Source: Deltaproteobacteria bacterium (GTDB lineage: Bacteria > Myxococcota > Kuafuiibacteriia > Kuafuiibacteriales > Kuafuiibacteriaceae). Taken from it: DNA of 64,000 bases. The stretch is taken from positions 384,001-448,000 of the forward strand of contig JAVJQW010000012.1 of assembly GCA_040218735.1 (NCBI GenBank), given 5' to 3'. A program made the translations under genes and the position numbers. The stretch's first letter is position 1. Each line of letters opens with the position of its first letter. This document shows positions 43,677 through 62,848 of the stretch, in pieces. The notes under the pieces were generated by a model. It made no database searches, had not been told where the DNA came from, and was given only the letters and a program-made list of their open reading frames with translations.

Positions 43677-44677
43677 CAGCTCATCCCTCTTCGAATCACC
43701 GCGATGGAAGCGTCGTCCGTGCGACGTTCGTGGTCACGGTAGTAGAGCGCAGCGATCGTCGACGCGCGACGCGCGATCAAGCCGGGGAACGAACGCGGCT
43801 CGCGGATCTGGCGCACGCCGTCGGAGTGGAGCACGCAGACGTCGTCCGCTCCGAACGCGATGGTGTCGGTCTTCAGTCTTCGCAACGCGGAGCCGGCCGT
43901 ACCGTGCGTCGCGGCGATTCGGGTGTCGCGCTCCGCACCGAGGACGAAGACGTCGATGTTACCGAGCGTGCAGATTCGAACGTCTTCGCCGGAGAACGTC
44001 GCCACGCCGACCACCGCGCCCCGGGCGCCGCGGAGGGCCTCGTGGAGCGCGCGCACGGTCGACTCCGGCTCGGGATCCTCGACGGCGTCGAACGCCGCGA
44101 TCGCCTGGTCCGCGATCTCCGCCGCGCGGCGCCCGTGACCGAGGCCGTCCACGACACACACCGTGAAACGCTCGGGCGTGATGGTGCGGTACGCGATGGC
44201 GTCCCCCGAATGGGCCTCGCCGGGGTACGCACGGACCAAGCCACCGACGTCGTAGACCGCGTTCGTACGGGGCGTTCGTGCGGAAGCCGCGAGCACCGTG
44301 TCGACGACGGTCCCGCGCTCCGGTGCGGACGCGATGTCCGACTCCGTCGACAGACGCAGCACCGTGCCGAGGCCGTGGCCAGGGGTGTCCGCGGTCGAGT
44401 AGCCGTCGCGCGCGCAGCGCTCGACGTTGTCCATGCCGGGGCCCTGGTCGAAGACCGTGAACCGAACGGTGTCGCCCTCGCGGACGACCAGCGCCTCTCC
44501 GCCTCCTCCGTGCACGACGGCGTTGGTGCACGCTTCGGTGACGACGAGATCCATCTCCCCGATCCGCGCGGCCGTGAAGCCGAGCTGGAGCCCGAGCGCG
44601 CGCGTCGCTGCACGCACCGCAGCGGCCGCGCTCTGATCGCGGACCGGAATCGTTCGACGGAGCCCGACGCGGGTCAT
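43676..44677 (-). CDS. GHKL-PP2C (SpoIIE) fusion phosphatase, RsbX-like
   Basis: TEACTNAVVHG and DQGPG, then SGD, VVDGLGHG, LHSDGV and TDDAS PP2C motifs. Confidence 0.88.
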   Translation of the reverse strand: MTRVGLRRTIPVRDQSAAAAVRAATRALGLQLGFTAARIGEMDLVVTEACTNAVVHGGGGEALVVREGDTVRFTVFDQGPGMDNVERCARDGYSTADTPGHGLGTVLRLSTESDIASAPERGTVVDTVLAASARTPRTNAVYDVGGLVRAYPGEAHSGDAIAYRTITPERFTVCVVDGLGHGRRAAEIADQAIAAFDAVEDPEPESTVRALHEALRGARGAVVGVATFSGEDVRICTLGNIDVFVLGAERDTRIAATHGTAGSALRRLKTDTIAFGADDVCVLHSDGVRQIREPRSFPGLIARRASTIAALYYRDHERRTDDASIAVIRRGMS

Positions 44678-45078
44678 GCTCGACCGTACACCGTGGCCGC
44701 GACGTAGAGTCCAGTCGGGGAGCGGGGACGGACCGCGAACTCGTCGGCCAGTCGCCGCGAGCCGCCCAGGCCCAGACCGAGCCCGCCGGCCGTCGAAAAG
44801 CCCTTCTCGAACGCCCTGTCCAGGTCCGCGATGCCCGGACCCTCGTCTTCGAACGTGAGCTCCAGGCCTCGGCGCGCTCCGTCCTGGACCACGCGCCAAC
44901 GGCACACGCCACCGCCCGCGTGCACGAGGACGTTCCGCGCGAGCTCACTCGCGATGGTGAGCGCGCGTGTCTTCTCGAACGTGGACAGACCGATCGAATG
45001 CGCGGCCGCCCCGACCGCGCTCCGCACGCGCGAGAGGTCCGCGCTCGACTCGATCCGAACGCGCGATGGGCTGGCTAT
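44674..45078 (-). CDS. rsbT: Stressosome switch kinase RsbT
   Basis: ASELARNVLVHAGGG, FEDEGPGIAD and GFSTAGGLGLGLGGSRRLADEF. Start uncertain: ATA at 45078, next GTG at 45027. Confidence 0.88.
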   Translation of the reverse strand: MASPSRVRIESSADLSRVRSAVGAAAHSIGLSTFEKTRALTIASELARNVLVHAGGGVCRWRVVQDGARRGLELTFEDEGPGIADLDRAFEKGFSTAGGLGLGLGGSRRLADEFAVRPRSPTGLYVAATVYGRA

Positions 45079-45434
45079 GTCGCGCAGAGGGATCGGAGCT
45101 TCTCCATACCGCGATCCACGTTGAGCGCCGTGTGGATCCCGTCCAGCGTCACGCCGAGCTCCACGAGGGTCATCGCGACCTCCGGCTTCACCCCGACCAG
45201 CACGGTCTGCGCGCCGAGGATCCGCGACATCTTCGCGAGGTCCCCGAGGAGACGCCCGGCGAAGGAGTCGACGACGTCGAGCCCGGCGATGTCGATCAGC
45301 ACGCCCTGGCAGCTCGTCTTCTCGATCTGGTGGAGCAAGTCGTCTTGCAAGCGCAGCGCGAGCTCGTCGTGCATATCGATCTGCACGCTCACGAGGAGGA
45401 TGTCGCCCACGCGGAGGATCGGGATGCGGTCCAT
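45075..45434 (-). CDS. rsbS: Stressosome STAS protein RsbS
   Basis: MDRIPILR, LIDIAGLDVVDSF with the phospho-Ser, and GVKPEVAMTLVELG. Confidence 0.93.
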   Translation of the reverse strand: MDRIPILRVGDILLVSVQIDMHDELALRLQDDLLHQIEKTSCQGVLIDIAGLDVVDSFAGRLLGDLAKMSRILGAQTVLVGVKPEVAMTLVELGVTLDGIHTALNVDRGMEKLRSLCAT

Positions 45435-45436
45435 CG

Positions 45437-46279
45437 CTACCCCTCCTTGACGACCCGATAGCCCATCCGCTCGATCGCGAACGCGAGCGCGGACCGCAAG
45501 CTGGATTGCGTCTCGATATCGCCGAGGTCAACGCCGAGCGTGACCATCGTCTGCGCGATCTGCGGACGTACGCCGGAGATCACACATCGCGTGCCCATCA
45601 AGCGCGCCGCCGACACCGTCTTCACGAGGTGCTGCGCGGTCACGGAGTCGACGGCCGGCACGCCAGTGATGTCGAGGATCGCGACCTCGGACTCACGCTT
45701 CACGATCTCTTCGAGCAAGGTCTCCATCACCTGCTGCGTGCGGGATGAGTCGAGGACGCCGATGATCGGGAGGACGAGGATTCGATCCCACACCTCGACG
45801 ACCGGCGTGGACAGCTCGAGCACTTCCTCCCGCTGGCGAGAGATGATCTCGTCGCGCTCCTCCAGGCTCACCGCTGCGACGTGCAGCCCGAGCTGGTCGA
45901 AGATCGACGTGGTGAGTCGTAGCTCCTCGGCGAGCGCCGCGCGGGACCCCAGCTCGGTCACCATGAGCGAGAACAACGCCTGCTTGAACGAAAGGACGAA
46001 CATCGCGGTGTCGACGGGCGACACGCCGAGCCGAGACCACGCCCGCGCGATGTCGGCGGTGACGGCTCTCAAGTCGTCCCATTCGTCGCCGTCGTACTCG
46101 GCGATCCCTTTGGCCATCGCGCGGTGCGCGCCGTCGATGAAGACGACGGAGCGCTCGCGGCGCTCCCGCGGCCCGACGAGGTCGGTGCGTACGGCGTCAT
46201 CCTTCACCTGGAACGACAGCCACTTTTCGAGGAGCACGTCCTCGCGGTCTCGTATGAGTTTTCCGATCGTCGTGGGCAC
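45437..46279 (-). CDS. rsbR: Stressosome scaffold RsbR (N-terminal helical sensor plus STAS)
   Basis: ELSTPVVEVW, LPIIGVLDSSR, ILDITGVPAVDS and SGVRPQIAQT motifs. Confidence 0.93.
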   Translation of the reverse strand: MPTTIGKLIRDREDVLLEKWLSFQVKDDAVRTDLVGPRERRERSVVFIDGAHRAMAKGIAEYDGDEWDDLRAVTADIARAWSRLGVSPVDTAMFVLSFKQALFSLMVTELGSRAALAEELRLTTSIFDQLGLHVAAVSLEERDEIISRQREEVLELSTPVVEVWDRILVLPIIGVLDSSRTQQVMETLLEEIVKRESEVAILDITGVPAVDSVTAQHLVKTVSAARLMGTRCVISGVRPQIAQTMVTLGVDLGDIETQSSLRSALAFAIERMGYRVVKEG

Positions 46280-47298: not shown

Positions 47299-48378
47299 GT
47301 GAATCGTCTTCGAATCAGCCTCCCCCTCGTGATCGCGCTGGCCGCCGCCTGCGGTGGCACCGAGAACCCCCTACCGCCCAATCCGTCCGGATCCCTGGAG
47401 GTCGCCGGAGCCTACGGCTCCGCCTTCGGCGAGGAGACCATCTCCGCGACGATGTGGGGCGCGACGACGATCGTGGAGTTCGACAACGACGCGAACTTCG
47501 CGATCACGCAGAACGCGGCGGACGACATGTTCAACCCGTCGGCGTTCAACCGCATCGTGTGGACGGAGCCCGACGCCAAGGGCGGGTTCTACTACTGCTT
47601 CGAGGTCTTCGGGCAGGCGACCGCCGAAGAGGCGAAGGCCGCGACCGAGATGGCGGACGCGGCCGACCCGGCGACGGGCGGGTGCGGCGGCTTCCCGTGG
47701 ACGCAGCTGTATCACGCGATCGAGATCGAGGGGCGCTACCACAGCAACTTCGGCGGCGTGGAGATCGTCTCGCACGAGCAGTTCTCGTTCATGACGGTGG
47801 TGGAGTTCGACAACGACGCGAACTTCGCCATCACGCAGAGCCCGGCCGACGACATGTTCAACCCGAACAAGTTCAGCAAGATCGTCTGGACGGAGCCGGC
47901 CAACGGCGGGTTCTTCTACTGTCAGGTCACGTTCGGCGAGGACACCGCCGAGGCCGCCAAGAACACGACCGAGATGGCGGACGACAGCAACCCGACCGTC
48001 GACGGGTGCAGCGGGTTCCCGTGGACGGAGCTCGGCCCGACGTTGGAGATCGAGGGCGAGTACGACAGCAACTTCGGCGGGACCGAGACGATCACCTCCG
48101 ACCTTTGGACCTCGTACGACGCGAGCGTCGTGCGCGAGTACGACAACGACGCGAACATCGCCTACCTGCAGCTCCCCGAGGACGCGATGTTCAACCCCGA
48201 CACCTTCGCGAAGGTGGTGTGGACGGAGCCGGACGGCGGCGCGTTCTACTACTGCTGGGTCGACTTCGGGTACGCGACGCTCGACGAAGCCAAGACGAGC
48301 ACGCAGACCTGGGACGCGAGTGATCCGGACAACTCTGGCTGCGGGGGCTTTTCGTGGACCAAGCTCACCGCGCGCTGA
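47299..48378 (+). CDS. B12-riboswitch-controlled lipoprotein made of three 108-aa tandem repeats
   Basis: SD AAGGAG plus GTG; lipobox LAAAC; repeats start at 47395, 47719 and 48043. Confidence 0.88.
   Translation: MNRLRISLPLVIALAAACGGTENPLPPNPSGSLEVAGAYGSAFGEETISATMWGATTIVEFDNDANFAITQNAADDMFNPSAFNRIVWTEPDAKGGFYYCFEVFGQATAEEAKAATEMADAADPATGGCGGFPWTQLYHAIEIEGRYHSNFGGVEIVSHEQFSFMTVVEFDNDANFAITQSPADDMFNPNKFSKIVWTEPANGGFFYCQVTFGEDTAEAAKNTTEMADDSNPTVDGCSGFPWTELGPTLEIEGEYDSNFGGTETITSDLWTSYDASVVREYDNDANIAYLQLPEDAMFNPDTFAKVVWTEPDGGAFYYCWVDFGYATLDEAKTSTQTWDASDPDNSGCGGFSWTKLTAR
47395..48366 (+). repeat. Intragenic triple repeat, 324-bp period
   Basis: EFDNDANFAITQ/EYDNDANIAYLQ, MFNP, VWTEP, FYYC/FFYC and GCxGFxWT recur three times. 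Confidence 0.9.
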
Positions 48379-49049
48379 TCCTGTTGCTGCTCTGCAGCTG
48401 CGCGGGTGAAGACCCGACGCAGCTGCTCCTCGACGGCGGCCCGCGCGACGCGGGCTCGGTGCGGGACGCGGGCGTCGACACGTCGGCGCTGCCGTTTGCA
48501 CGCTCCGTGACGGCGTTCGACGACGGCGACGGCGCGGGCTTCGGCCAGGACGCGATGCCCGGCGTGGTGCTCGGACCTCCGCGCGGCGGCGGGCTCGAGG
48601 CCGGCTCGACCGACGTGGTGAGCCTCGGCGTGGGCGGAACGATCGTCGTCGGGTTCGGCGACGACACGATCGTGGACGGGCCAGGGCCCGACTTCGTGGT
48701 GTTCGAGAACGCCTTCTGGGTCCAGGGCGACCCGAGCGACGTGTTCTTCGAGCTGGGCGAGGTCTCCGTGAGCGACGACGGCGAGACCTGGCACACGTAC
48801 CCGTGTGACGCCGAGGCGACGGCGCCCCCCTGGACGGGGTGCGCCGGTTGGTCCCCCACGCGCCCGTTCGACCCGTTCGACCTCCCCCTCACCGCCGACC
48901 GAACGGGGGGCGACGCGTTCGACCTGGCCGATCTCGGGCTCGACGAGGCCCGGTTCGTGCGGATCCGCGACCTGTCCACCGAGGGGGTCCCACCGACGGC
49001 AGGGTTCGACCTCGACGCGATCGGGTTGTTGCACGTCGACGGCCTGTAG
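48354..49049 (+). CDS. Cell-surface lipoprotein, BtuH-like domain
   Basis: Lipobox LCSC; VSLGVGGTIVVGF, DGPGPDFVVFENAF, ELGEVSVSDDG, GGDAFDL, FVRIRD and GFDLDAI motifs. Exact start uncertain. Confidence 0.75.
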   Translation: MDQAHRALILLLLCSCAGEDPTQLLLDGGPRDAGSVRDAGVDTSALPFARSVTAFDDGDGAGFGQDAMPGVVLGPPRGGGLEAGSTDVVSLGVGGTIVVGFGDDTIVDGPGPDFVVFENAFWVQGDPSDVFFELGEVSVSDDGETWHTYPCDAEATAPPWTGCAGWSPTRPFDPFDLPLTADRTGGDAFDLADLGLDEARFVRIRDLSTEGVPPTAGFDLDAIGLLHVDGL

Positions 49050-49146
49050 AACCTGCCACTTCTGCAAGTCGGTGCAAGCGTTCGGGGCCGGCGGGGCGCC
49101 TGCGGAGGTCTTCTCGTCTGGCCCGGATGGTGCTTAGAACGAGGGG

Positions 49147-52100
49147 ATGCCGCGCGTCGACCGACGGCGTTTCGAGGCGAGCTTCGCCCACCGACAGGTC
49201 CGTGTGGACCGTCTTCCGCGGAACCTCGTCCGCAGCCTCGAGGCGCATGGCGTCAGCCGCGCCGATCTGGAGCGCATCGCCGGTGACGACCACGTCATCC
49301 AGGGCGCCGAGTTCAACCAGCTCTACGAAGCGTTGGCGACCCGGACGCAAGGCGGCCAGCGCGTCGACACCCGGGTCAGCGAGGAACTGTTCGCCCAGCT
49401 GACCGCGCGCGCCGAGCGCAGCCCGTCGAGCACGCCGGAGCCGACGCCCACCGCGACGGCGCGGAGCACGGGGATCGGAGGGCGTCGTTCGGCGCGGCCG
49501 GGCTCGGCCGCGGACGAAACCCCGCCCGGTGCGAACGGTGTCGGGGCGAACGGTGCGGCGGCGAACGGTGTCGGTACGAACGGAACGCCGGCGGTCGCGC
49601 AGCCCGCCGACCCGGGTGCGCCCGCGGCCGCGCAGCCCGAGACCGCGGCGCCCGAGGGTCCGCCGCCCCTCGCCGAGGGTTACAACCGGCGCGAGCGGCG
49701 CATCGGCCGCGAGGACGTCGTCACCCACGCGGTGCTCGACCCCGAGACGCAGCGGACGGCGGCGGCGCTCGCGGCGCTCCCGCCCGCGACCGAGGGGCGC
49801 CACACGCCGGTGCGTGCGTTCCTCGACGCGATCGAAGCGCGCGACGAGCGAGCGCGCCTCCTCGCGGAGGGTGACCGTCGCGGCGCCGGCGCCGTGACGC
49901 GCCCCGAGGGTGTGCCGGCCGACATCTGGAACGTCACGGCGGCGCTCGATCGACGCGGGATCAGCTCGACCGACGTCCAGTTCTACCTCGCGCACGGCAC
50001 ACTCCCGGATCTGCTGAACGAGGACGGCTCCGTCGCGATGCGCGGCGCGGACCGCCTCGCGGAGCTGGAGAACGCGGCGATCCGGCGCGGCAGCTGGACG
50101 GCGGTGAACACGTTCACGTTCCTGGTGCGGATGCGCCGGTCGTCGATGGCGGCGGAGCGCGAAGCGGCCGGGCGCGTGCTCGCGACGATCCCGGAGTCGG
50201 ATCCGAGGCACGCGCAGATCACCGCGGGGATCGAGCAGAGCCGACAGCTCGACACGCAGCTCGGGCGCAGCCTCCAGTCGATGTACCGCGCCGCCACCGG
50301 CGCCCGCGAGTCGACCGGGCGCGGGCTGATCGGTCGCGCCGACGATCTCAGCCGACAGGCGCGCGAAGCGCGAAGCGGCGGCGACGAGGCGCGCGCAGTG
50401 GAGCTCGAGCAACGCGCCCAGGGCCTTCGCGATCGCGGCGCGCAGATCACGCACGCGGAGGCGGAGTACCGCTCGTCGATGCGTTCGTACCGCGCCGACG
50501 CCGGACGTCTCTATCGCCTCTCCGCCGCCGCGCAGATCTCGACCGGCGAAGAGCAGGTCCGCGCGCTCGCGACGCAGACCGGCCCGCTCCCCGAAGCGCC
50601 GCCGGCCGTGCTCGGCAACGACGACGGCACGAACACCGGCAACGGCGTGCCCGGCGCCGAGCGCCTCCTCACCACCGCGCGCGCCGTCGACCCGACGGCG
50701 GGCACCGACGACACGCAGCTCGCGCTGGAAGGACGCCGCGCCGCGGCCGTCGGTGGCTTCCACCGCGCACACCTGGACCGCGGTGGTTACTTCGATCGCG
50801 TCGACCCCGAGACCGGCGAGGTCTCGACGCGTTCGTCGGGGCTCGCGCGGCACCGCGACCTCTACCTCGGCGCGCGCGTCGATCAGGCGAACGCGGCGAC
50901 CGGGCGCCTCGCGCTCGCGCGCGCGGAAGAACCAAGCACCGACCGCGACCTGCGCATCTCCTCTCTGGAGGCGGAGCGTCGCGGCGTCGCGGAGGAGCTG
51001 TCGCGTGATCTCGGGCAGTCCCTCGCGAGTGATCGCGCGGCGACCGACGCCCGTGCGCGCGTCCGTGATCTCGACGCGGCGGTCACGAGCGCCGACGAAC
51101 AGCGCGACGGCGCACGCACCGCGGCGCGCGACGCGGACAGCGGCGTCGACAACGCCGAGAGCAACGCCTACGCGCTCCTCGGCGACACACTCAAGACCGA
51201 CGGCGAGGCGCGCCGCGACCGCGAAGGTGTGTCGGACGCCCGCACCGTTCGCAGCATCGAGCGCGGGCGCCGCGACCTCGCGGTGGTCAACGCGCGCGAG
51301 ACGCGCGAGACCCGCGACCGCGCGGTCGACGCCGAACGTGTCGCGACCACGCAGGCCCAGCGCGACCGCGAAGACGCCGCGCGTGTGCTGCGCGCCGCGC
51401 AGCGCCTCGAGACCGGCGAGATCTCCGCGACGGTCCCGACGACGACCGAAGAAGGCTACCGCTTCGCGCGTGGGATGGCGGACCGAAGCGCGCGCGCCGA
51501 GACGAGCGCCCTGGACCGCGCGGCGCTGTCGATCCCCGAGAGCGCGCCCGCCGATCACCGCGACCGCCTCACGGTCGCGAGCCGCCGCGTGGACCTGTCG
51601 CGCTATTGGACGCGCAGCGCGGAGGGCGAAGCCGTCGCGCTCGGCGACGCCGGCCGGAGCGGTGCGACGGGACGCCTCGATCGTGCATCGCGGTTGATCA
51701 GTCAGTCCGACGCCACACGCCTCACCCTCGACGGCGGCTCGGACGCCCGGCTCGGCCTCGCGTCGGGGTTGGTCACCGCGCGCGCCGAGCTCGCGACGGC
51801 CGAGGGCGACTACCGACCCGACGTCGCGCGGCAGCAGCTCCTCGTCGCCGAGACGACCGTAGACGGCGACCTCGCCCTCGACCGCGATCGCGCCGGACGG
51901 GCCTACGGCGAGATCGGCGTCGCGGCGACCGCGGCGCTCGCGCGCAGCGAGTCTCGGTTCGACGCGATCCTCGACAGCGGCAACCACGTCCCCGGCGCAG
52001 CGGACGCGCTCTACCTCCAGGCGCATCGCATGTTCGACCCGGTGCCGTTCGTCGTCATGCCCCGCGGCATCCCGGACACGCCGGCGACACGCTCGGCGCG

Positions 52101-55100
52101 TGAGACCCTCGGGCGCTTCGACGCCGCGCTCGACCAGGTCGACGGGATGTTCACGGCGAGCCAGGCGCAGATCCGCAACGGCGCCGACTACGCGCTCGCG
52201 CGGACCCGCGGCCTCGGCCACAGCGAGATCGGCGCGGCGCAGGCGCAGGTCTCGACGGTGATCAGCGGCGGCGCGTGGGTCCTCTCCCTCGGCTTCTTCG
52301 ACATGAAGGAGGAGATGGCCGACGCGGGCGAGCACATGATTCGCCACCGCATGAGCTGGGTGCGCCAGGAGCGCGACAGGCTGGTTCGCGGCGCGGACCA
52401 CATGCGGGCGTCGTACGCCGCGGCGCGCACGGACGGGCGCGCGTTCGAGTGGCTGCACTCGGTGCGTATCATCTCCGACCGCAGCCGCGCGGACACGATG
52501 CCGCAGACCTACGGGCGCGCGTTCGTCACGATCGCCGAGCACATCCCGGACGACATGCGCTCGCGGATGGACTGGCAGACGTTCAACCGCATCGCGATCC
52601 GCGAAGGACACGTGCCGGTCGCCGCCGCGCTCTCCGGCAGCGTCCTCGGCTTCGAGCAGGCGATGGAGAACCTCTCCGACGATCGCATCATGGCCGTCAC
52701 CCCGGGCATGGCCGACGCGATCCAGTCGCAGGCCGACAGCCTCGAAGAGACCACCGACGGGATGATGTGGATCATCGGCATCAACACCGCGCTCGAGGTC
52801 GGCCTCGGGATCGTGTTGACCGGTGGCATCGGCTCGGTCGGCGCCGCGGCCGAGGGCGCGAACGCGCTCAACACCACGCGCACCGCGGCCTCCGCGATGA
52901 GCGCCGCGCGCAACGCACAGCTCGCGCTCCGCGCGATGGCGGCGCTACGCACGATGGGCACCGTCACCGTCGTCGGCGGCGGGATGATGGCGGCGAACTA
53001 CGGCGTCGGGAAGCTCGTCGGCCGCAACACCGGCGCCGCGCGCGGGTTCGAGGTGCTCACCAACTTCATCCCGATCGGCGCCGGGCAGCGCGCGGCGGGC
53101 ATCGTCGGTCACGCGGACGACGTCGCCGCGGCGGGGACCCGCCTGCAGCAGCTCCGTCGCGCGATGAGCTGGTCCCACGTGCGCAGCGCTTCGGCGTGGA
53201 GCCGCGCGCTGACGCCGGTCGCGCTCGGTAGCGCGCAGGCGTTCGGGACGACGGTCGCGACGCCGTGGATCGCGCAGCGGGTCGGCCTGGAGCGGAGTGA
53301 CCTCGGGCAGGCGGCGATCGGCCTCGGCCTCAACGTCATCTTCGCGGGTGGCATGGCGGCGGCCGTGCGTCCGCGCACCACCGCGACGGGTCTCGCGGAT
53401 CACCTCTCGGCCGCGATGGGCGAGCACGCGCCGTCGCGCCGCGCGCGCGGGCAGATGCGCACGGAGATCGAGACCTTCCTGCGCAACACGGAAGGTCGCG
53501 TGCCCACCGACGCCGAGGTCTCCGCGCTGAAGACACGTCTGCAAGAGCACATGGGCCTCGACGCCGCGACGCCCGACGCACCGGAGCGCGTCGCGATCGT
53601 CGACGGCGCGGTGGAGGCGCTCCGCATCGAGCGCGCCACGCAGCTGCACGCGGGTGCGTTCGACGATGGCACGACCCCGGCGCAGGCGCGTGACGCCGTC
53701 ATCGCCGCGGGTGACGCGCTCTACCAGGCGCGCGGCGGCGACGCGGGCGGCACGTCGCGACTCCAGGCGTACCGCGACGCCGCGATGACGATGAGCGAGC
53801 GCCTCGGCGGACAGGCCCGCGCGGCGTTCGAAGCCGGCGACACCGCGCGCGGCACCGCGCTGATGGAGCTGCGCCAGGTCGTCGGTGAGCGCGCGCTCGC
53901 GGCCGAGCTCGTGGAGGGTACGGCACGCGGCAACCCGAACGACGCGACGCTCTCCAATCCGACGAACCGCGCCAACGCCGAACGCATCCTCGCCGAGGAG
54001 CTCACCGCGGCGCGCACCGCGCTCGACGGCACCGAAGGCCCGGGCCTCGGCCAACGCGACGGCAGCTCGTTCTACGACGGGCTCGTCCGCCGCCTCCGCG
54101 AAGAGGGTGGCCTCTCCTCCGAAGCCGCGGAGACGGTGGTGCGCGGCGCACGCGACGAGCTCGTGCACCAGGCTGTCCTGCGGCACCTCGCCGCGGCGCA
54201 GGTGGAGGCGGGGCCGCGACCGCTGCGCAACAACGAGATCTCGCGCATCGCGACCGAGCTCGCGCAGCGCGCCGGCCTCCCGGACGCGCCGGCGTACGCG
54301 CGGTCGATCGTCGAGCAGCGGCCCGCGCTCGAGCGCTCCGGCTTCGTACGTCCGTCTTCGCGTCCGACGCTCGACGCCGCGATGATCGAGCAGCGCGCGC
54401 GCGCCGCGGCCGACGCGGACCCGTCGATCGCGCGGTTCATCGAACAGCACGGCCCGATCGCGGAGCGCCTCGTCGGTGAGCTCGGCGCCGAGCGGTTCAT
54501 GCAGGCGTTCGGCGACGGCGACATGGTGTCGTTCGAAGCGCGACGCCTGATCGAGCTGCCGCCGGAGCGCATCAACGAGCTGATCGACGTCGCCCAGGAC
54601 GACCCGGCGCGTGTGCAGGGCATCATGCAGGCGCTCGGCGTCGGTGAGTCGCGCTCGGTCGTGCTGCGTGCGTTGAACGAAGTCGGCGTGGAGCCGGCGG
54701 CGCGCCTCGCGGAGATCGGCGCTCAGTCCCCGCGCGGCCTCGGCTACCTCGCCGCGCGCGAGGGTGGCGCGACCCGCGTCCTGCAACGCCTCGCGACCGA
54801 GCCGAACGCCCTCGCCGCGCAGGCCCGGCGGATGGAGGCGCGCATCTTCATGCGCGCGAACGACGGCACCTACCTGGTGCGCGGCGATCCGCCCGCGCCG
54901 ATCCCGGCGCCGACGCGCCGACAGCTCGAAGGCCTCGCGCGACGTGCCGGCGTCGACCCGGCGGTGCTCCGCGATCCGACCGCGCACCCCGCCGAGATGG
55001 CGCGCGTGATGGATCAGATGCGCAGCGAGATGCCGGCCGACATGCGCGCCGCGCTCGACCGCGAGCTGGCCGGGCGACGTTTCATCGACGAGGTCCACTA

Positions 55101-56826
55101 CCAGGAGGCGTTCGACGCGGGCGTCAACAACCCGGAGCACCGCTACGGGCGCGTCGACTTCGAAGCGTGGCAGCGCGCCGAGTCGATCATGATGGGCGCC
55201 GCCGACCGCGGCGAGCCGCTCACCGCCGACACGTTGATCGCCGCGCACCGCGCCGCGAGCGAAGGCATCCTCCCCGAGCCGCGCCGCGGCCTGATCCGCT
55301 CCGCCCCCGCCGAGACCGCGTTCCAGGGTGGCGACGGCCCGATGGGCCAGCGCGTCGTCACGCAGGCGGAGTTCGAGACGATGCGCGCGAACCCGCACCT
55401 CAACGTGCACGACCTCGGCGCCTCCGACGGCGGCCGTCTCGTCATCGTCGAGTACACCTCCCCCGCCGAGGTTCGCGCCAAGCTCGACGTCGCGCTCCGA
55501 CGCATCGACGAACGCCTCGCCGCCGGCGAGGACCCCGTCACGGTCGCCGCCGACGCGCAGCGCGAGTTCGTCAGCATCCACCCGTTCCTCGACGGCAACG
55601 GCCGCATGAGCCGACTCGTGATGGACTACGTGCTCCGTCGCGAAGGCCTCTCGCCATCCGTCGTGCGCGACCCGAACCTCGACACGCAGGTGTCGTCGGC
55701 CGCGTGGCGCGCCGAGGTCCGGCGCGGGATGCAGCGCCCATTCGAGGCGACGATGAACGCGTGGAACCGTGCGCAGCGCGGTCGTCCGCCACCCATCCGC
55801 GCGAACGCGGATCCGGTCGGGCCGTCGCCGGTCGGCGACTCGGCCCACGCACGCCGCGACACCCTCGGATGGACCGGTCAGCCCACAGCGACGCCGCCCG
55901 CGGGCGCCGAGCACCTCGGTGTCATCCACCGCGGCATGCAGGCGATGTCGCCGCGGTCGCGTCGGCTGATCGAGTCGTACCTGCAGCGCGCGGAGAGCGG
56001 TCCGCCCGAGCTCGTCGCACGGCGCGACGCACTCGCGACTCGGCAGCAACAGATCTGGCAGGAGCACGGTCGTCTCCTCGGCACGCCGGCCGATCAACTG
56101 CCCGCGCCGGATCGTGCGCGGCAAGAGGCGTTGCAAACGGAGCTCGCGACGATCAGCTCGGAGCGAACCACCGTCGACCGTGCGATCGGTGACGCGCAGC
56201 TCGCGGCGCGCCGGATGGCGATCGCGGAGATGCAGCGGGTTCGCGACGGGATGCGTCGACACGTCTCCGACGCCGAGTCGCGTCGCATCGCGGACGGGAT
56301 GCCGATTCACCCGTCGGCGGCCGCAGCCGCCGAACCGGCCCGCCTCCGTGCCTGGGTCGCGGACGCGCTGCAACTCATCCCGCACGAGATCGGCGCGGAG
56401 TCGATCTCACTGGTGAGTGATCGCCCACGCGCCGACGCGCGCCGCAGCGGCACGCTCAACATCGGCGAAGACATCACGCGAGGCATCACGTTCCACGAGA
56501 TCGGGCACTACATCGAGTTCACCAACCCCGAAGTCGCCGCCGCCGCGCGCGCGTGGGTGATGGAGCGAAGCCGGATGGCCAACGGCGGCACGGCGCAGCG
56601 GGGAGAGATGCGGGACCTCGCGGGCTCCGACTTCTACGACCGCGGTGAGATGGCGTTCGAGGATCACTTCGACAACCCATACATCGGGCGTGACTACGGC
56701 GAAGGTGGATCGACGGAGGTCGTGAGCGTCGGGATGGAGTACTTGACGTCGCCGGAGCGAATGCTCCAGCTCTACCAACGCGATCCGGAGCACTTCTTCT
56801 TCATGATGGGAGTCTTGGAACCATGA
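49147..56826 (+). CDS. Giant 2559-aa multidomain toxin-like protein with Fic domain and C-terminal HExxH zincin
   Basis: GAGGGG plus ATG; no signal peptide; hydrophobic helices at about 52250-53370; HPFLDGNGRMSR at 55579; HEIGH at 56494 with downstream TEVVSVGME. Confidence 0.88.
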   Translation: MPRVDRRRFEASFAHRQVRVDRLPRNLVRSLEAHGVSRADLERIAGDDHVIQGAEFNQLYEALATRTQGGQRVDTRVSEELFAQLTARAERSPSSTPEPTPTATARSTGIGGRRSARPGSAADETPPGANGVGANGAAANGVGTNGTPAVAQPADPGAPAAAQPETAAPEGPPPLAEGYNRRERRIGREDVVTHAVLDPETQRTAAALAALPPATEGRHTPVRAFLDAIEARDERARLLAEGDRRGAGAVTRPEGVPADIWNVTAALDRRGISSTDVQFYLAHGTLPDLLNEDGSVAMRGADRLAELENAAIRRGSWTAVNTFTFLVRMRRSSMAAEREAAGRVLATIPESDPRHAQITAGIEQSRQLDTQLGRSLQSMYRAATGARESTGRGLIGRADDLSRQAREARSGGDEARAVELEQRAQGLRDRGAQITHAEAEYRSSMRSYRADAGRLYRLSAAAQISTGEEQVRALATQTGPLPEAPPAVLGNDDGTNTGNGVPGAERLLTTARAVDPTAGTDDTQLALEGRRAAAVGGFHRAHLDRGGYFDRVDPETGEVSTRSSGLARHRDLYLGARVDQANAATGRLALARAEEPSTDRDLRISSLEAERRGVAEELSRDLGQSLASDRAATDARARVRDLDAAVTSADEQRDGARTAARDADSGVDNAESNAYALLGDTLKTDGEARRDREGVSDARTVRSIERGRRDLAVVNARETRETRDRAVDAERVATTQAQRDREDAARVLRAAQRLETGEISATVPTTTEEGYRFARGMADRSARAETSALDRAALSIPESAPADHRDRLTVASRRVDLSRYWTRSAEGEAVALGDAGRSGATGRLDRASRLISQSDATRLTLDGGSDARLGLASGLVTARAELATAEGDYRPDVARQQLLVAETTVDGDLALDRDRAGRAYGEIGVAATAALARSESRFDAILDSGNHVPGAADALYLQAHRMFDPVPFVVMPRGIPDTPATRSARETLGRFDAALDQVDGMFTASQAQIRNGADYALARTRGLGHSEIGAAQAQVSTVISGGAWVLSLGFFDMKEEMADAGEHMIRHRMSWVRQERDRLVRGADHMRASYAAARTDGRAFEWLHSVRIISDRSRADTMPQTYGRAFVTIAEHIPDDMRSRMDWQTFNRIAIREGHVPVAAALSGSVLGFEQAMENLSDDRIMAVTPGMADAIQSQADSLEETTDGMMWIIGINTALEVGLGIVLTGGIGSVGAAAEGANALNTTRTAASAMSAARNAQLALRAMAALRTMGTVTVVGGGMMAANYGVGKLVGRNTGAARGFEVLTNFIPIGAGQRAAGIVGHADDVAAAGTRLQQLRRAMSWSHVRSASAWSRALTPVALGSAQAFGTTVATPWIAQRVGLERSDLGQAAIGLGLNVIFAGGMAAAVRPRTTATGLADHLSAAMGEHAPSRRARGQMRTEIETFLRNTEGRVPTDAEVSALKTRLQEHMGLDAATPDAPERVAIVDGAVEALRIERATQLHAGAFDDGTTPAQARDAVIAAGDALYQARGGDAGGTSRLQAYRDAAMTMSERLGGQARAAFEAGDTARGTALMELRQVVGERALAAELVEGTARGNPNDATLSNPTNRANAERILAEELTAARTALDGTEGPGLGQRDGSSFYDGLVRRLREEGGLSSEAAETVVRGARDELVHQAVLRHLAAAQVEAGPRPLRNNEISRIATELAQRAGLPDAPAYARSIVEQRPALERSGFVRPSSRPTLDAAMIEQRARAAADADPSIARFIEQHGPIAERLVGELGAERFMQAFGDGDMVSFEARRLIELPPERINELIDVAQDDPARVQGIMQALGVGESRSVVLRALNEVGVEPAARLAEIGAQSPRGLGYLAAREGGATRVLQRLATEPNALAAQARRMEARIFMRANDGTYLVRGDPPAPIPAPTRRQLEGLARRAGVDPAVLRDPTAHPAEMARVMDQMRSEMPADMRAALDRELAGRRFIDEVHYQEAFDAGVNNPEHRYGRVDFEAWQRAESIMMGAADRGEPLTADTLIAAHRAASEGILPEPRRGLIRSAPAETAFQGGDGPMGQRVVTQAEFETMRANPHLNVHDLGASDGGRLVIVEYTSPAEVRAKLDVALRRIDERLAAGEDPVTVAADAQREFVSIHPFLDGNGRMSRLVMDYVLRREGLSPSVVRDPNLDTQVSSAAWRAEVRRGMQRPFEATMNAWNRAQRGRPPPIRANADPVGPSPVGDSAHARRDTLGWTGQPTATPPAGAEHLGVIHRGMQAMSPRSRRLIESYLQRAESGPPELVARRDALATRQQQIWQEHGRLLGTPADQLPAPDRARQEALQTELATISSERTTVDRAIGDAQLAARRMAIAEMQRVRDGMRRHVSDAESRRIADGMPIHPSAAAAAEPARLRAWVADALQLIPHEIGAESISLVSDRPRADARRSGTLNIGEDITRGITFHEIGHYIEFTNPEVAAAARAWVMERSRMANGGTAQRGEMRDLAGSDFYDRGEMAFEDHFDNPYIGRDYGEGGSTEVVSVGMEYLTSPERMLQLYQRDPEHFFFMMGVLEP
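49531..49584 (+). repeat. 15-bp coding tandem repeat (ANGxx) x3.6
   Basis: gcgaacggtgtcggg / gcgaacggtgcggcg / gcgaacggtgtcggt / acgaacgga. Confidence 0.8.
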
Positions 56827-57113
56827 TTCGCTACCGAGTCTCACTCTCCGAGCAGCGCGTCGTCACCGTCTCGCTCGACAGCGACGATCCCGACAAACAC
56901 GCGACGATCGAGCTGGAGGGCCACCCCTCCGACGTCGCGCAGGTGCGGCATATGCTCGACTTCTCCAACGGGATCGACGGGCGGCTGATCGAAGAGCGAA
57001 CCACGCCGGTGGATCTCGACGTGGCGATGCACGGCAAGTGGCTACGCGACTACGCCGAGCGCCTGGAGGGTGAGGAGATCCTCGCGAGGTACGTGCGGAG
57101 GCCGGCGCTGTGA
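56823..57113 (+). CDS. Small protein coupled to the giant toxin-like gene (candidate immunity)
   Basis: ATGA overlap with the upstream stop; 96 aa, cytoplasmic. Confidence 0.75.
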   Translation: MIRYRVSLSEQRVVTVSLDSDDPDKHATIELEGHPSDVAQVRHMLDFSNGIDGRLIEERTTPVDLDVAMHGKWLRDYAERLEGEEILARYVRRPAL

Positions 57114-57451
57114 GCGTGAAGTCATCGACGCTCGTCATCGCGACGAAGTCCCCCGGCCGCTGCGAGCGGTGCCGACACGCCAACCAGGGCACGGTCGACA
57201 TCGCGGAGGGGAAGGCGTTCTGCTGGTTCGCGAAGGCGCCGAAGAAGGCGTCCCAGCGGTGCGACGTGACGTTGCCGCTACGTACTTCGGCCGCGTCGAG
57301 CTCCGTCGATCCGTACTACCTCTTCGAAGCCTACGACGGTGAAAACGGCACCTTCGACAAGAGCGAAGACCTGCGCATCCTCGCCGAAGACGCGGACACA
57401 TCGCTTCGCCAATCACTCGACGCCGACCGGCCGTTCATCCCGGGGGACTGA
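57110..57451 (+). CDS. Small Cys-containing hypothetical protein (possible Zn-binding)
   Basis: GTGA overlap preceded by GGAGG; CERC...FC...RC. Confidence 0.65.
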   Translation: MSVKSSTLVIATKSPGRCERCRHANQGTVDIAEGKAFCWFAKAPKKASQRCDVTLPLRTSAASSSVDPYYLFEAYDGENGTFDKSEDLRILAEDADTSLRQSLDADRPFIPGD

Positions 57452-57605
57452 GGATGCCTCGGGTTCGGCGGAATCGCCGCTCGACGCACACCGCTTCCGA
57501 GCTCGCTGAAGTTGCGCTTCCTGCAGGTCGCAGGTGCCGACCGGCCCCTTGAACCCCGATCCGACGCCCGTTCGGTCGGCCCGCGGTTTGCTTTGACCTG
57601 GGAGG

Positions 57606-58781
57606 GTGAAGGTCCGTCGAGAGCGTGAGGCCACGACGCCCGCCCCAGAGGCCCGTCCCGTGCGTCGGACGGCGCCCGAGCCGGCCCCGCCCGCGCCGCG
57701 CTCCGAGGCGGTCCGCGCGGCGGACGAACCCCCGATCGCCGCGGCGCTGCGGCCCGACCCCTCGATTCGCACTTCGACGTCCCGCGTCGCGGACGACACC
57801 CACCGGCGGACGCTGGACCTCGCCGCTCAGCTCCGCGACGAAGGCCGCACCGACGAGGCCCTCGGCCTGCTCCGCGGGCTCCGCTTCCTCACCCCCTCGC
57901 GGGGGGTGCCGGACGACGCGACGTTCCTCGCGGGACGCACCGACGCGTCCTCCGCCGGCGACGGGCTCGACCGCCTCGACGCGATGATCGCCTCGATGCG
58001 CGACGAGCCGATCGACACGACGATCCAACCCGCGCTGCGGTTGAGCTGGTTCAACGACCAATTCTTCTACCCGAACGGCGACGACGATGGTTTCACACAA
58101 GCCGCCGAGCTCGGGCTCACGCTCCGCCGCGGCGTCGACCAGCTCGATCTCGACGTCCGCCACAGCATGCTCACCGAGCGCGGCGGCCCTCGGCGCGTGG
58201 ACGAGCTCGACGTGCACGCCACGCTGTCCCGGACGATCGAGCGCGGTCAGGTCGAGTGGACGTTCGGGCCGAAGGTCGGCGTCAGCCTCGTCGGGGACTA
58301 CGGCGGCGCCGAGCTGCAAGACTGGTTTCACGGCGCGATCGGGATGGGGCGTCGCCTCGATGGCTGGCTGCAGAGTGAGTACGAAGGCACCAACCAGGCC
58401 GCGGTGATCGTCGGCGCGCACGTGCAGGCGCGGCGGGATCTCGGCGTCGGCTTCTCCGCGCACGCCGGGCTCGACGGCCAGCTCGCGCTCGGACCCACCG
58501 GCGTCAGCCGCATCGCGCCGCGCGTCGGCCTGAACTGGGAGCTCCCCCGCGGCCCCGTGCGCCCGGTCGTCGGCGCCGAGCTGGAGATCGCGAAGTTCCA
58601 CACGCCGGACGCCAGGCTGCAGATGGCCGGCGGCTACGACACGTCCGGGTTCCAGGCGATGCCCAACTTCCGCCTCGGCATCGCGGGTGATCACTTCGAG
58701 CTCGGCTGGCGCGGCACCGTCAACCAGGGCGGGTCGGGCGCCAACATGGGCGAGATCTATCTGACCATCGGCCGGCGCTGA
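57606..58781 (+). CDS. LpxR/DUF2219-like beta-barrel with signal-less N-terminal extension
   Basis: GGAGG plus GTG; FNDQFF...DDDGFTQ and ELQDWFHGAIG...DGW resemble LpxR motifs; amphipathic strands. Confidence 0.6.
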   Translation: MKVRREREATTPAPEARPVRRTAPEPAPPAPRSEAVRAADEPPIAAALRPDPSIRTSTSRVADDTHRRTLDLAAQLRDEGRTDEALGLLRGLRFLTPSRGVPDDATFLAGRTDASSAGDGLDRLDAMIASMRDEPIDTTIQPALRLSWFNDQFFYPNGDDDGFTQAAELGLTLRRGVDQLDLDVRHSMLTERGGPRRVDELDVHATLSRTIERGQVEWTFGPKVGVSLVGDYGGAELQDWFHGAIGMGRRLDGWLQSEYEGTNQAAVIVGAHVQARRDLGVGFSAHAGLDGQLALGPTGVSRIAPRVGLNWELPRGPVRPVVGAELEIAKFHTPDARLQMAGGYDTSGFQAMPNFRLGIAGDHFELGWRGTVNQGGSGANMGEIYLTIGRR

Positions 58782-58819
58782 CTTGCACCGCGCGCCGTCG
58801 GGCGCGATCGTCACGAACG

Positions 58820-59656
58820 ATGACGTCGAACGCGATGGTCCAGGTGCGCGCGGCACGAAAGGCCCAGCTCGTTCAGAAGCTCGCGATGCGGGAGAAGGCG
58901 CTGTTCGACGCCGAGCTCGACGCACGCGAGGCAAAAGCCCACGCCGAGCGCGAGCACGCGGACGTCGCCGACCTCGAAGACGTCGGCGCGAGTGAGCTCC
59001 TCCTCAGCCTCACCGGTCAGCTCGGCGCGCGCTACGACAAGGAGCACGCCGAGGCCGAAGCGGCGCTGCGTTCGTGGCGCCTGAAGGAAGACGTGTGCGC
59101 GCGGTTGCGCGAAGAGGTGCAGCGAACGCGCGACGCCATCGCGAAGCTCGGTACGCCGGAGCAGCGGCTCGCCCCGCGAGACACCGGCTCGGAGGATCGC
59201 GCGCGACGCCTGATGCTCACAACCGCCGCGCTCGACGAGCTATACGAAGCCTCGGACGCGCTGACCCAGATGCGCGCAGCGCTCGCGCGCGCGGAGCGAT
59301 GGGCGAAGCTCACCAGCGATCGCGAAGAAGGTCCGGCGCGCGCGCACGCGGAGACGATCGCGGCGGCGTCCTACGAACGCTTCGGGCAGTTCGAGACGGA
59401 GCTGTCGCAGGCGATCGCCGCGCTCGCGAACGTCGGCGACCACGCTCCGACGCTGCACGTCCCGCAGCCCGAGAGCCTCCGTCACGACCTCGCGAACGCG
59501 TGGCGGCGACACAAGAGCCTGGCGGGCCTCGAGCCCCGGTGGGACGAGATCGATCGTGCGCTCGACGCGGCGGTCGAGGAGCTCGAGCGGTGGTTGCGGA
59601 AGGAGCTCGACCGCTCGGAGGGCCCCGACTGGAACGTCGGCGCCCTCTTCCGCTGA
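58820..59656 (+). CDS. Hypothetical coiled-coil protein
   Basis: Helical Ala/Glu/Arg/Leu-rich ORF (EREHADVADLE...YDKEHAEAEAA). Confidence 0.65.
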   Translation: MTSNAMVQVRAARKAQLVQKLAMREKALFDAELDAREAKAHAEREHADVADLEDVGASELLLSLTGQLGARYDKEHAEAEAALRSWRLKEDVCARLREEVQRTRDAIAKLGTPEQRLAPRDTGSEDRARRLMLTTAALDELYEASDALTQMRAALARAERWAKLTSDREEGPARAHAETIAAASYERFGQFETELSQAIAALANVGDHAPTLHVPQPESLRHDLANAWRRHKSLAGLEPRWDEIDRALDAAVEELERWLRKELDRSEGPDWNVGALFR

Positions 59657-62341: not shown

Positions 62342-62848
62342 TCAGGACGGGCGGTGGGTCATGACACACACGTCTGCGCACCTCTGTGCGTCTGCGTTGC
62401 AGCCGTTCATGGCGCTGTCGAAGTCCGCGTCGCAGAACGCGCAGGAGAGCGGGTCGTTGCAGATCATGTAGCACTGGTCGAAGCGCCGGACCTCGACCAC
62501 CGCGCACTCCGACCGGGTCACGAAACAGTCGCCCACGCAGGTTTCGACGTTGGCCTGCTCGACGTCGCAGCACGAGCGGTGGCAGCTCGCGGCCTTCCCG
62601 AGCGCCGCCTTCTGGCAGACCCCCTCGTCCTCGAAGCACTGGATCGCCATCTCGATGTCCTGCATCGCCGTGCAGGCCTGGGGATCGATCGCGCAGGCGG
62701 CGCTGTCCGACTCCAGGGCGGAAGCGCAGGCCATGCACTCGGACGAGAAGACGTCGCAGTCCGGCGGGTTGGTCGTGCCGTCGCCGAGGTCGTCGCCGGA
62801 CGATCCGCAGGCGGCGACGAGGGCGAGGAGGAGGAAACGGGCACGCAC
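62342..62848 (-). CDS. Very Cys-rich small lipoprotein
   Basis: Lipobox VAAC; 20 further Cys in about 150 aa. Confidence 0.75.
   Translation of the reverse strand: MRARFLLLALVAACGSSGDDLGDGTTNPPDCDVFSSECMACASALESDSAACAIDPQACTAMQDIEMAIQCFEDEGVCQKAALGKAASCHRSCCDVEQANVETCVGDCFVTRSECAVVEVRRFDQCYMICNDPLSCAFCDADFDSAMNGCNADAQRCADVCVMTHRPS

Follow-up and report, generated by a model that had tools for sequence, protein, structure and literature searches.

Polymorphic toxin systems (Zhang et al. 2012, PMC3482391) and the MuF toxins of phages (PMC5576092), which like the other papers below are cited from excerpts, join a conserved N-terminal part to many C-terminal enzyme domains; the C-terminal cassettes recur in other toxin families, and small open reading frames (ORFs) directly downstream follow the cassette. 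Metallopeptidase domains account for 20% of the MuF toxins (PMC5576092), the zincin-like peptidases of polyvalent proteins may process their own protein or act as effectors (PMC5512222), and the same dual role was proposed for the PVC metallopeptidase (PMC3482391). A similar layout was found in the DNA analysed here, a stretch of 64,000 nt (hereafter the window) that corresponds to positions 384001-448000 of contig C21 in genome G000 (11.6 Mb, 70 contigs, 96.5% complete), from a member of the Myxococcota whose order is represented by 20 species genomes in the collection used. The window contains a giant gene for a 2559-aa protein, P0001, which ends with a Fic cassette and a zincin cassette and is followed by two small genes, dn1 and dn2. 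We lean towards reading P0001 as a giant polymorphic effector ("toxin") of an uncatalogued family, with two cassettes and their cognate immunity-like partners. The layout is thus that of known polymorphic toxins; new, as far as sequence comparison tells, are its N-terminal domain (N-domain) and its core, which are absent from the libraries searched. The features are as follows.

49147-56826, + strand: giant ORF (protein P0001), 2559 aa, open without internal stop
49147..49431, + strand: N-domain, aa 1-95, family-defining, possibly EF-hand-like; present in 12/12 homologues and in two further large proteins encoded by this genome
49432..49743, + strand: low-complexity Pro/Ala/Gly/Asn-rich linker, aa 96-199, from the composition per 100 aa; unconserved in the blastp maps
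49744..54351, + strand: all-helical core, aa ~200-1735, from blastp sharing and an AlphaFold model
52243..53373, + strand: cluster of Gly/Ala-rich hydrophobic helices inside the core, aa 1033-1409, from Kyte-Doolittle windows 1033-1053, 1205-1238 and 1386-1409
54373..55782, + strand: Fic cassette, aa 1743-2212, a helical N-part and the Fic fold of aa 1943-2210, from Pfam, motif and fold
55579-55614, + strand: Fic motif HPFLDGNGRMSR, aa 2145-2156, canonical HxFx(D/E)GNGRxxR
55852..56823, + strand: zincin cassette, aa 2236-2559, consisting of the junction motif RRDTLGWTG, a helical hairpin and a probable zincin fold, aa 2374-2559, from blastp, motif and fold
56494-56508, + strand: HEIGH, aa 2450, zincin motif
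56823..57113, + strand: dn1, 96 aa, a candidate for inhibiting the zincin or giving immunity to it; start and giant-gene stop overlap (ATGA)
57110..57451, + strand: dn2, 113 aa, CxxC...C...C, candidate partner conferring immunity to the Fic cassette; start and dn1 stop overlap (GTGA)

The giant ORF claimed in the first-pass annotation of the window is open from 49147 to 56826 and was recovered on a contig of another study. An in-frame TAG is located 4 codons 5' of the ATG, therefore the ATG at 49147 is the first possible start, and the first residues of P0001 are the same in all homologues. The GC3 of the ORF, 0.90, fits the genuine genes of this window of ~70% GC. In run X2, a sponge metagenome from a study other than the probable source, one 27.6-kb contig spans window positions 48000-58998 with 13+96 differing letters (~1%), and the 3' end of the giant gene is bridged together with dn1 and dn2 by contigs of runs X3, X4 and X5. 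Since these contigs span or bridge the same DNA, the giant ORF is not an assembly artefact. Sponge, biofloc and aquaculture metagenomes of three studies (runs X2-X5) contain DNA with ~99% identity to window positions 48000-59000; the lineage keeps recurring and is aquatic or marine.

Comparisons by blastp with the homologues and with its own genome divide P0001 into independent modules, and the N-domain, the core, the Fic cassette and the zincin cassette each recur separately in other proteins. In the same genome, the N-domain was found without the other modules on a 989-aa protein with a peptidoglycan-binding domain (contig C23), and also on a second large protein, which contains another HExxH and is encoded on C24 by an ORF of at most 1222 aa whose true start is uncertain; the core alone occurs in a 1958-aa paralogue on C9, and the zincin cassette alone in a 1318-aa ORF on C20 (C20_1318). 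The core is common to P0007-10 (source name of P0007, "Deltaproteobacteria bacterium"), P0021, P0025, P0034, P0056, P0068, P0099 and the genome copies. The Fic cassette recurs at 41-52% identity on P0011, P0012, P0018, P0092, P0110 and L061, which are N-domain giants with a different middle, and the zincin cassette is common to C20_1318, P0034/L025 and P0160-P0163. Among 21 core-bearing proteins, six end with Fic and zincin, one with Fic and a GGDEF-like domain and one with zincin alone; the tails of the remaining 13 are of other kinds, 12 of them forming one cluster of related tails and one being unique. Homologues that keep the N-terminus and the core therefore swap their ends (Fic and/or zincin in 8/21, others in 13/21), as the earlier proposal of a polymorphic toxin with stacked effectors had implied, and the two warheads behave as independent cassettes, with a different small downstream ORF accompanying each. 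Inspected by eye, most tails of the 12-member cluster contain a His/Cys domain of clan-CD-like type (GHG...DAC[HS]Q) followed by a hydrophobic stretch at the C-terminus; in two cases the extreme end differs, and one of these looks PIN-like.

Two of the paralogous genes deserve a description of their own. The core-bearing paralogue on C9 (G000:C9:381437-387313, L009:8437-14313) has no N-domain and no Pfam family, and its end, a GHG...DACHQ domain of clan-CD-like type plus a hydrophobic tail, is the most frequent one among the core-bearing relatives. In the zincin ORF on C20 (L008:9166-13122, minus strand), aa 737-915 match Pfam DUF4781 (E 4.3e-25), which we take to be a eukaryotic family.

Searches of family libraries returned little apart from Fic. 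It was the only Pfam match on P0001 at E<=1, and the Pfam scan found no RHS, RTX, haemagglutinin, VgrG or PAAR family, in agreement with the absence of such repeats that had been noted before. No Pfam family matched the N-domain, the core, the zincin, dn1 or dn2; NCBIfam matched the whole protein only via Fic, and no large clostridial toxin, MARTX, RHS, RTX or CdiA profile of Pfam or NCBIfam matched P0001. The description of P0001 as an undescribed class holds within Pfam, NCBIfam and those parts of the literature that were searched; the zincin clade may already be included in the supplementary tables of PMC3482391, PMC5576092 and PMC5512222.

The distribution of the two small genes follows that of the cassettes. 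A dn1 homologue is located directly 3' of the orthologous giant gene in the same-genus genome G011 (61% identity), and another directly 3' of the G013 gene L025 (42% identity), which encodes the N-domain, the core and the zincin and no Fic. Homologues of dn2 are located 3' of the G011 orthologue and of the G013 giant L061, which has the Fic cassette, another core and no zincin; dn2 is missing after the zincin-only gene L025. Because of these positions, dn1 is seen to go with the zincin and dn2 with Fic. The sample comprises three loci per partner, including the present one, from a single bacterial family; on this small one-family sample, P0001 appears to have the co-varying downstream immunity-like genes by which polymorphic toxins are recognized. 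In addition, on the Leptolyngbya plasmid pLBA the end of a zincin gene is overlapped by an ORF of 101 aa, probably a dn1 homologue, with a pairwise E of ~1e-5 to dn1 and 29.7 bits against the dn1 profile in a two-sequence comparison. Among 72,556 plasmids, dn1 had no match at E<=1, the pLBA match being too weak for a database-wide search, and the Leptolyngbya dn1-like protein matched itself only. The small ORF after the Streptococcus pyogenes phage zincin is not similar to dn1, and dn2 had no family match in Pfam, PHROGs or PADLOC.

Complex prediction gave a score of 0.81 for the zincin with dn1 and 0.01 for the best of three controls; the mark used for such scores is reached by 58 of 80 solved complexes and by two of 110 mismatched pairs. 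The three runs scored 0.83, 0.81 and 0.00, with a contact agreement of at least 0% and a partner pLDDT of at least 51. In the modelled interface, H2450, E2524 and E2531 of the zincin face residues 49-55 of dn1, which include its invariant GIDG loop, and dn1 is predicted from this model to bind the active site of the zincin.

The zincin cassette starts ~320 residues from the protein end with RRDT(L/V)GWTG, which is strict in six sequences; variants of the junction motif are visible by eye in P0162, P0163 and the C20 ORF. It continues with a helical hairpin (aa ~2255-2369 in the model), which is what had been described as a short coiled linker before the zincin. The terminal HEIGH...E metallopeptidase that had been recognized from the letters is a zincin by its motif and its invariant residues, with a modest match to a solved fold. 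Thus, H2450, E2451, H2454, E2457, E2524, E2531 and D2546-F2551 (DPEHFF) are invariant in 7/7 aligned zincin relatives, and the best solved fold for aa 2374-2559 is PPEP-3 (9g0j_A; Z 8.3, rmsd 3.6, 147/215 residues), a match that stood at rank 34 in a fold list filled by Fic, the zincin having been modelled as part of a longer chain. No Pfam family matched aa 2387-2559 at E<=10, a search that covers Tox-MPTase1-5, MPTase-PolyVal, M34 and DUF4157; nothing credible was found in the Protein Data Bank (PDB) by profile search, and in PHROGs the matches were limited to unnamed families and one annotated as "minor head protein".

Relatives of this zincin end a MuF-position protein of S. pyogenes prophages, encoded after a portal-like gene, and are fused to a Mu-type portal in P0161. 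The same cassette ends two ~1600-aa DUF4157/eCIS_core proteins of Myxococcus (P0162 and P0163; source name "Myxococcus sp."), which share only this cassette with P0001. The DUF4157 giants and the MuF- or portal-fused phage proteins that the zincin cassette also ends are known settings of polymorphic toxins or of virion-delivered proteins (PMC3482391, PMC5576092), which speaks for the polymorphic effector. In Xanthomonas phage Rb1 (L031), the gene for the zincin protein is adjacent to a gene for a giant SNF2-type ATPase, and in the Vibrio plasmid p0908 (L082) it is two genes off; such a neighbourhood of zincin and giant SNF2 is the setting described for virion-delivered polyvalent proteins. A partner directed at the active site, as dn1 appears to be, is compatible with either role of the zincin, processing or effector.

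A canonical Fic motif had been noted, and Pfam, the motif HPFLDGNGRMSR and the fold all confirm a Fic domain. PF02661 matched aa 2025-2163 (E 5.5e-11, 43.6 bits against a cut-off of 24). The model has a pLDDT of 87.3, and in Foldseek the region had 39 matches at E<=1e-3, every listed one being a Fic protein (E 1.5e-5). The fold of aa 1943-2210 aligned over 222 residues to 3cuc_B (Z 18.2, rmsd 3.6) and reached Z 16.7 to FICD (4u04_A). The NCBIfam match to XopAC is weak (44.9 bits against a cut-off of 450). A defence-system reading was rejected, PADLOC showing only Fic-motif similarity to defence Fic families. A cis inhibitory helix is usual in housekeeping Fic proteins. The inhibitory motif (S/T)xxxE(G/N) is absent from aa 1743-2240 and occurs in P0001 only at aa 166, 765 and 822, so that by the cis-motif criterion the Fic of P0001 appears to stand outside the auto-inhibited classes II and III. 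As for the partners, the motif is not in dn2, which tracks Fic, and occurs as TIELEG in dn1, which tracks the zincin.

A profile built from 13 N-domains was searched among 1.84 billion proteins (cluster representatives) and found 189 protein clusters at E<=1e-3, of which 56 were at E<=1e-10. When 150 of the listed proteins were re-scored, 148 were recovered, and the N-domain starts within the first 20 residues in 138 of these; a hydrophobic segment resembling a signal is absent from the first 40 aa of all 138. P0001 itself has no hydrophobic N-terminal segment either, which agrees with the absence of a Sec signal noted at the outset. The N-domain proteins are 75-2661 aa long, and 95 of them, with 200-1000 aa, were scanned against Pfam. 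PG_binding_1 was found in 13, Peptidase_C39_2 in six, CHAP in five and subtilase in two, and LysM, CdiA_C, Tox-URI2, transglutaminase, ankyrin or HEAT in single proteins; the majority have no Pfam family. This set of domains looks effector-like. Since the binding and cutting of peptidoglycan take place outside the cytoplasm, and since a Sec signal is missing and the N-terminal position is invariant, the N-domain might be seen as the handle of a non-Sec export route. In the phylum, 25 of 401 genomes have the N-domain, with a concentration in the window's own family (9/19), and the copies are scattered within genomes, several in each and at most seven matches per genome. A profile search of the PDB gave nothing credible for the N-domain. 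Weak hints at an EF-hand come from single EF-hand_6 and Dockerin_1 matches among N-domain proteins, from ESM Atlas rows with weak EF-hand-type leads only (0.89) and from two members with canonical-looking DxDGDG loops (by eye). The N-domain or its central part is repeated in tandem two to four times in P0013, P0014, P0101 and 15 others, which is unexpected for a pure export signal.

About 1000 aa of helical sequence had been assigned to the middle of P0001. The AlphaFold model of aa 540-1739, made with 20 sequences, confirms the helical nature and shows the helical part to be longer, since all of it is all-alpha (mean pLDDT 77.5), with long helical hairpins and bundles. The hydrophobic cluster placed at ~52250-53370 was likewise found, in windows at nt 52243-53373; the hydrophobic stretch of aa 1215-1411 was modelled at a pLDDT below 50. 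The core matched nothing in Pfam, NCBIfam or PHROGs and had no match in the PDB at E<=1e-3 by Foldseek. The best scores in the ESM Atlas were <=0.86 and gave no lead, and VIA-align returned only designed or generic helical repeats and hairpins at Z<=14.2, the noise level for helical models. Nothing links the core to the translocation domains of known large toxins, and because it has no detectable fold relative, the label "translocation-like" given to it at first derives from hydrophobicity alone and is no more than a supposition.

How P0001 might leave the cell was considered from the genomes. TssC (PF05943) was not found in G000 and occurs in only five of the 25 N-domain-positive genomes. The type VI secretion system was rejected as the export route on the grounds that G000 has no TssC and P0001 no PAAR or VgrG match in Pfam, and such export appears unlikely. 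P0001 has no PF13699 (DUF4157/eCIS_core) match, and the two PF13699 genes of G000 and its sheath genes are located on contigs C9 and C20, not on C21, the contig of the giant gene; by the DUF4157 criterion and by that of neighbouring contractile injection system (CIS) genes, P0001 does not look like an eCIS/PVC cargo. Phage_sheath_1 has three matches in the region G000:C9:518345-603477, where two open frames of 1622 and 1667 aa also contain eCIS_core/DUF4157 genes, and no contractile-injection-type gene of C9 is near an N-domain gene.

One lead points to a type III-like route. FHIPEP (SctV/FlhA) has seven matches in G000 and one to seven in each of the 35 genomes checked (35/35), and four N-domain genes and one core-bearing gene are located 7-24 kb from an SctV paralogue (G000:C70, G002:C210, G013:C1, G013:C2, G001:C1), a proximity with a chance of ~3% per gene by our arithmetic. 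These loci are syntenic over four genera (G000:C70:143529-157151 = L075; L026/L077, L063/L078, L067/L079, L080). The cluster contains the SctV paralogue, a TPR protein, a weakly needle-like 169-aa protein, a calpain-like C2 protease and a beta-helix protein. These are followed by an N-domain+PG_binding_1 protein, whose region is occupied in G013:C1 by the core-bearing giant, and then by a HEAT protein, a Ser/Thr kinase and sigma-54/FHA activators. Non-flagellar type III secretion systems (NF-T3SS) of Myxococcales are described by Abby and Rocha as secretin-less, needle-less and of unknown function (PMC3459982, excerpts). The N-domain might accordingly mark the substrates of Myxococcota type III-like export, with P0001, made up of helical hairpins and hydrophobic helices, as a translocator-like giant fused to its own effectors, and the lack of a Sec signal and of Cys in P0001 and a signal at the extreme N-terminus would suit this. 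We nevertheless regard it as unlikely. No FHIPEP gene is on contig C21, so P0001 itself is not near one; Pfam scans of 20 predicted proteins in ~33 kb around G000:C70 found no other T3SS core gene; and the five loci represent one conserved cluster type rather than independent events. The needle-like protein (F10; PF09392, E 1.3e-3, under the cut-off) was rejected as a phyletic marker of a general link, being present in only three of 35 genomes while 25 carry N-domain genes. Classical T3SS signals are unlike a conserved, folded-looking domain such as the N-domain, and dn1 does not behave as a secretion chaperone, given that its probable homologue goes with a zincin on a cyanobacterial plasmid as well. 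The bolder version, in which the N-domain would be the long-missing substrate tag of the secretin- and needle-less type III-like systems and P0001 a self-translocating giant that passes through the SctV-paralogue machine, inserts its hydrophobic helices into a target membrane and delivers Fic and zincin, is a long shot.

Alternatively, P0001 could stay in the cell as a membrane-anchored regulatory giant whose Fic and zincin would be directed at proteins of the producer or at P0001 itself, with dn1 and dn2 as regulators. The hydrophobic helices in mid-protein could hold it in the producer inner membrane, there is no signal peptide or adjacent secretion gene, relatives have a hydrophobic C-terminal tail after the His/Cys domain and one a GGDEF-like end, zincins in multidomain proteins have been proposed to be autoproteolytic (PMC5512222, excerpts), and signalling genes (STAS/RsbR, histidine kinase, sigma-54 activator) are located upstream. 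However, the N-domain on Sec-less peptidoglycan-binding or lytic and nuclease-toxin proteins calls for export, the swapping of cassettes with cognate small partner genes is a toxin-immunity signature, and the Fic cassette has no cis inhibitory helix, which makes residence in the cell quite improbable. Still less probable, and hardly to be expected, is a polyvalent protein of phage or plasmid type or a contractile-injection cargo on a mobile element. Zincin relatives in S. pyogenes prophages, Xanthomonas phage Rb1 and Vibrio p0908, the Mu-portal fusion, the cassette at the end of DUF4157/eCIS_core proteins and the sheath and eCIS_core genes on contig C9 would speak for such an origin; however, when P0001 was compared with 50,697 phage and 72,556 plasmid records, matches were confined to its last ~140 aa and to the region of the Fic motif, and neither the N-domain nor the core had any. 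Moreover, tRNA genes are absent from the window, a scan of 20 neighbouring ORFs found no phage or conjugation family, P0001 has no DUF4157, the CIS genes are on another contig, and the gene order is kept in the same-genus genome G011.

If P0001 is a polymorphic effector, as we prefer to think, the ~95-aa N-domain would serve as the handle for a non-Sec export route, being common to hundreds of otherwise unrelated Sec-less proteins of which many need to act outside the cytoplasm, and the ~1500-aa core with its Gly/Ala-rich helices would be a scaffold or a membrane-insertion part. The Fic cassette, with a canonical AMP-transferase motif and apparently no cis inhibitory helix, and the zincin cassette at the C-terminus, delimited by a helical hairpin and a conserved junction motif, would be the toxic parts. 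In the producer, the products of the two translationally coupled downstream genes would restrain both enzymes: dn1 is predicted to block the active site of the zincin by means of its invariant GIDG loop, and dn2 presumably pairs with Fic; the target would be bacterial if dn1 and dn2 are true immunity proteins. Several points weigh against the polymorphic effector. The commonest tails of the core-bearing proteins (12/21, related) resemble a membrane-anchored protease more than a classic toxin with immunity, and one core-bearing relative has a GGDEF-like end, which is a signalling domain. The core is without a fold relative and its role is a guess, and the N-domain may, from the weak hints given above, be a Ca-binding or regulatory EF-hand-like module instead of an export signal. 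No secretion system adjoins the giant gene. By analogy with polyvalent proteins, the zincin may process P0001 itself rather than attack a target (PMC5512222, excerpts). The co-variation of dn1 and dn2 comes from three loci per partner in one bacterial family, which are kin and not independent, the link between the Leptolyngbya ORF and dn1 rests on position and a modest score, and one of the three runs of the zincin and dn1 complex gave 0.00. On the whole, the interpretation offered in the first-pass annotation is right in outline and partly supported.

The surroundings of the giant gene add little. There is no tRNA within the window, and the 20 neighbouring ORFs scanned include no secretion system beside the giant gene and no phage or conjugation family. 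Upstream are a STAS/RsbR-histidine kinase-sigma-54 activator group and family-less ORFs with lipoprotein-like N-termini; downstream are four ORFs without a family and a trypsin-like gene. The partner-switching-type genes at window 42048-46279 (minus strand) encode RsbRD_N+STAS, STAS and a HATPase_c_2+HisKA+HATPase_c kinase, and the sigma-54 activator is at window 38211-40052. A 359-aa protein with a lipoprotein-like start is encoded at window 47299-48378 (+ strand); it has three ~110-aa internal repeats (…VEFDNDANFAITQ…FNP…VWTEP…) and no family. At window 62342-62848 (minus strand), a 168-aa Cys-rich protein with a lipoprotein-like start has 84% identity in the same-genus genome G011, where the gene order around the giant gene is retained. 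The ORFs 47299-48378, 48354-49049, 57606-58781 and 58820-59656 were rejected as parts of the system, having no family and not recurring beside homologues, with the sole exception of 57606-58781, which recurs beside the homologue in G011.

P0001 has an unusual composition, with 0 Cys, 5 Lys and 314 Arg in 2559 aa. Its Lys content is 0.2%, compared with a genome median of 2.4%; of 4296 crude ORFs, 114 reach so low a value, which places P0001 in the lowest 2.7%. Just as little Lys is found in many N-domain proteins of high GC content. The scarcity of Lys may be due to GC pressure (the gene has 72-75% GC) or to selection. As a sign of a eukaryotic target it was rejected, given the number of ORFs with as little Lys and the very high GC content of the gene.

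The N-domain, with its 189 clusters, is a new searchable marker that would flag Sec-independent effector candidates in Myxococcota and in organisms of lower GC content, and the 1500-aa core adds a predicted fold without a known relative. In addition, there are two candidate immunity families, one for an uncatalogued, phage-carried zincin clade and one for Fic, neither of which is like known inhibitors. If the link to the SctV cluster is true, what myxobacterial type III-like systems export becomes directly testable; if the N-domain is a substrate tag, its proteins would be the first substrates for "ancestral" type III-like systems, which would then have a function in interbacterial attack.

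Among the systems compared, the large clostridial toxins, MARTX and Tc toxins are like P0001 in size, in a mid-protein hydrophobic region and in having enzyme domains in one chain. Unlike in those toxins, the enzyme domains of P0001 are C-terminal, not N-terminal, there are no receptor-binding repeats and no sequence match, and the fold searches of the core listed no large toxin, so the likeness is by analogy only. With the polymorphic and MuF toxins the resemblance extends to the layout described at the beginning; unlike them, P0001 has an N-domain and a 1500-aa core that match no Pfam-catalogued trafficking domain or repeat among those checked (RHS, haemagglutinin, PAAR, VgrG, DUF4157, MuF), and it stacks two cassettes with two partners in one protein.

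The Fic effectors and pairs (FICD, IbpA Fic2, AnkX, XopAC/AvrAC, VbhT-VbhA, FicT-FicA) have the canonical motif and the fold in common with P0001, whose Fic fold reaches Z 18.2-11.8 to 3cuc, 4u04, 4bep, 4itr, 5jff and 3shg. The Fic of P0001 has a candidate partner encoded by a separate small gene, as have the class I Fic pairs; unlike in known Fic systems, it is a cassette in a 2559-aa protein, and the candidate partner dn2 is without (S/T)xxxE(G/N). The M34-type zincins (Pro-Pro endopeptidases and the anthrax lethal factor clan) share HExxH and downstream invariant Glu residues with P0001, and PPEP-3 is the best solved match to its fold, at a modest score. In one phage-type group of the polyvalent zincin-like metallopeptidases (MPTases) of phages and plasmids, as far as the excerpts of PMC5512222 go, an acidic residue stands three positions after HExxH as in P0001, and like those MPTases the zincin clade of P0001 occurs in phage head-associated proteins. 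Unlike the M34 and polyvalent zincins, it has no Pfam zincin family, and it has an invariant C-terminal DPEHFF and a dedicated partner, dn1. In the Myxococcus DUF4157/eCIS_core giants P0162 and P0163, the handle is DUF4157, whereas in P0001 it would be the new N-domain, and the cores are dissimilar by blastp. However, these giants have, by eye, the same succession of a handle, a long helical region and a Gly/Ala-rich hydrophobic cluster, and they end with the same junction-hairpin-zincin cassette, at 40% identity to that of P0001.

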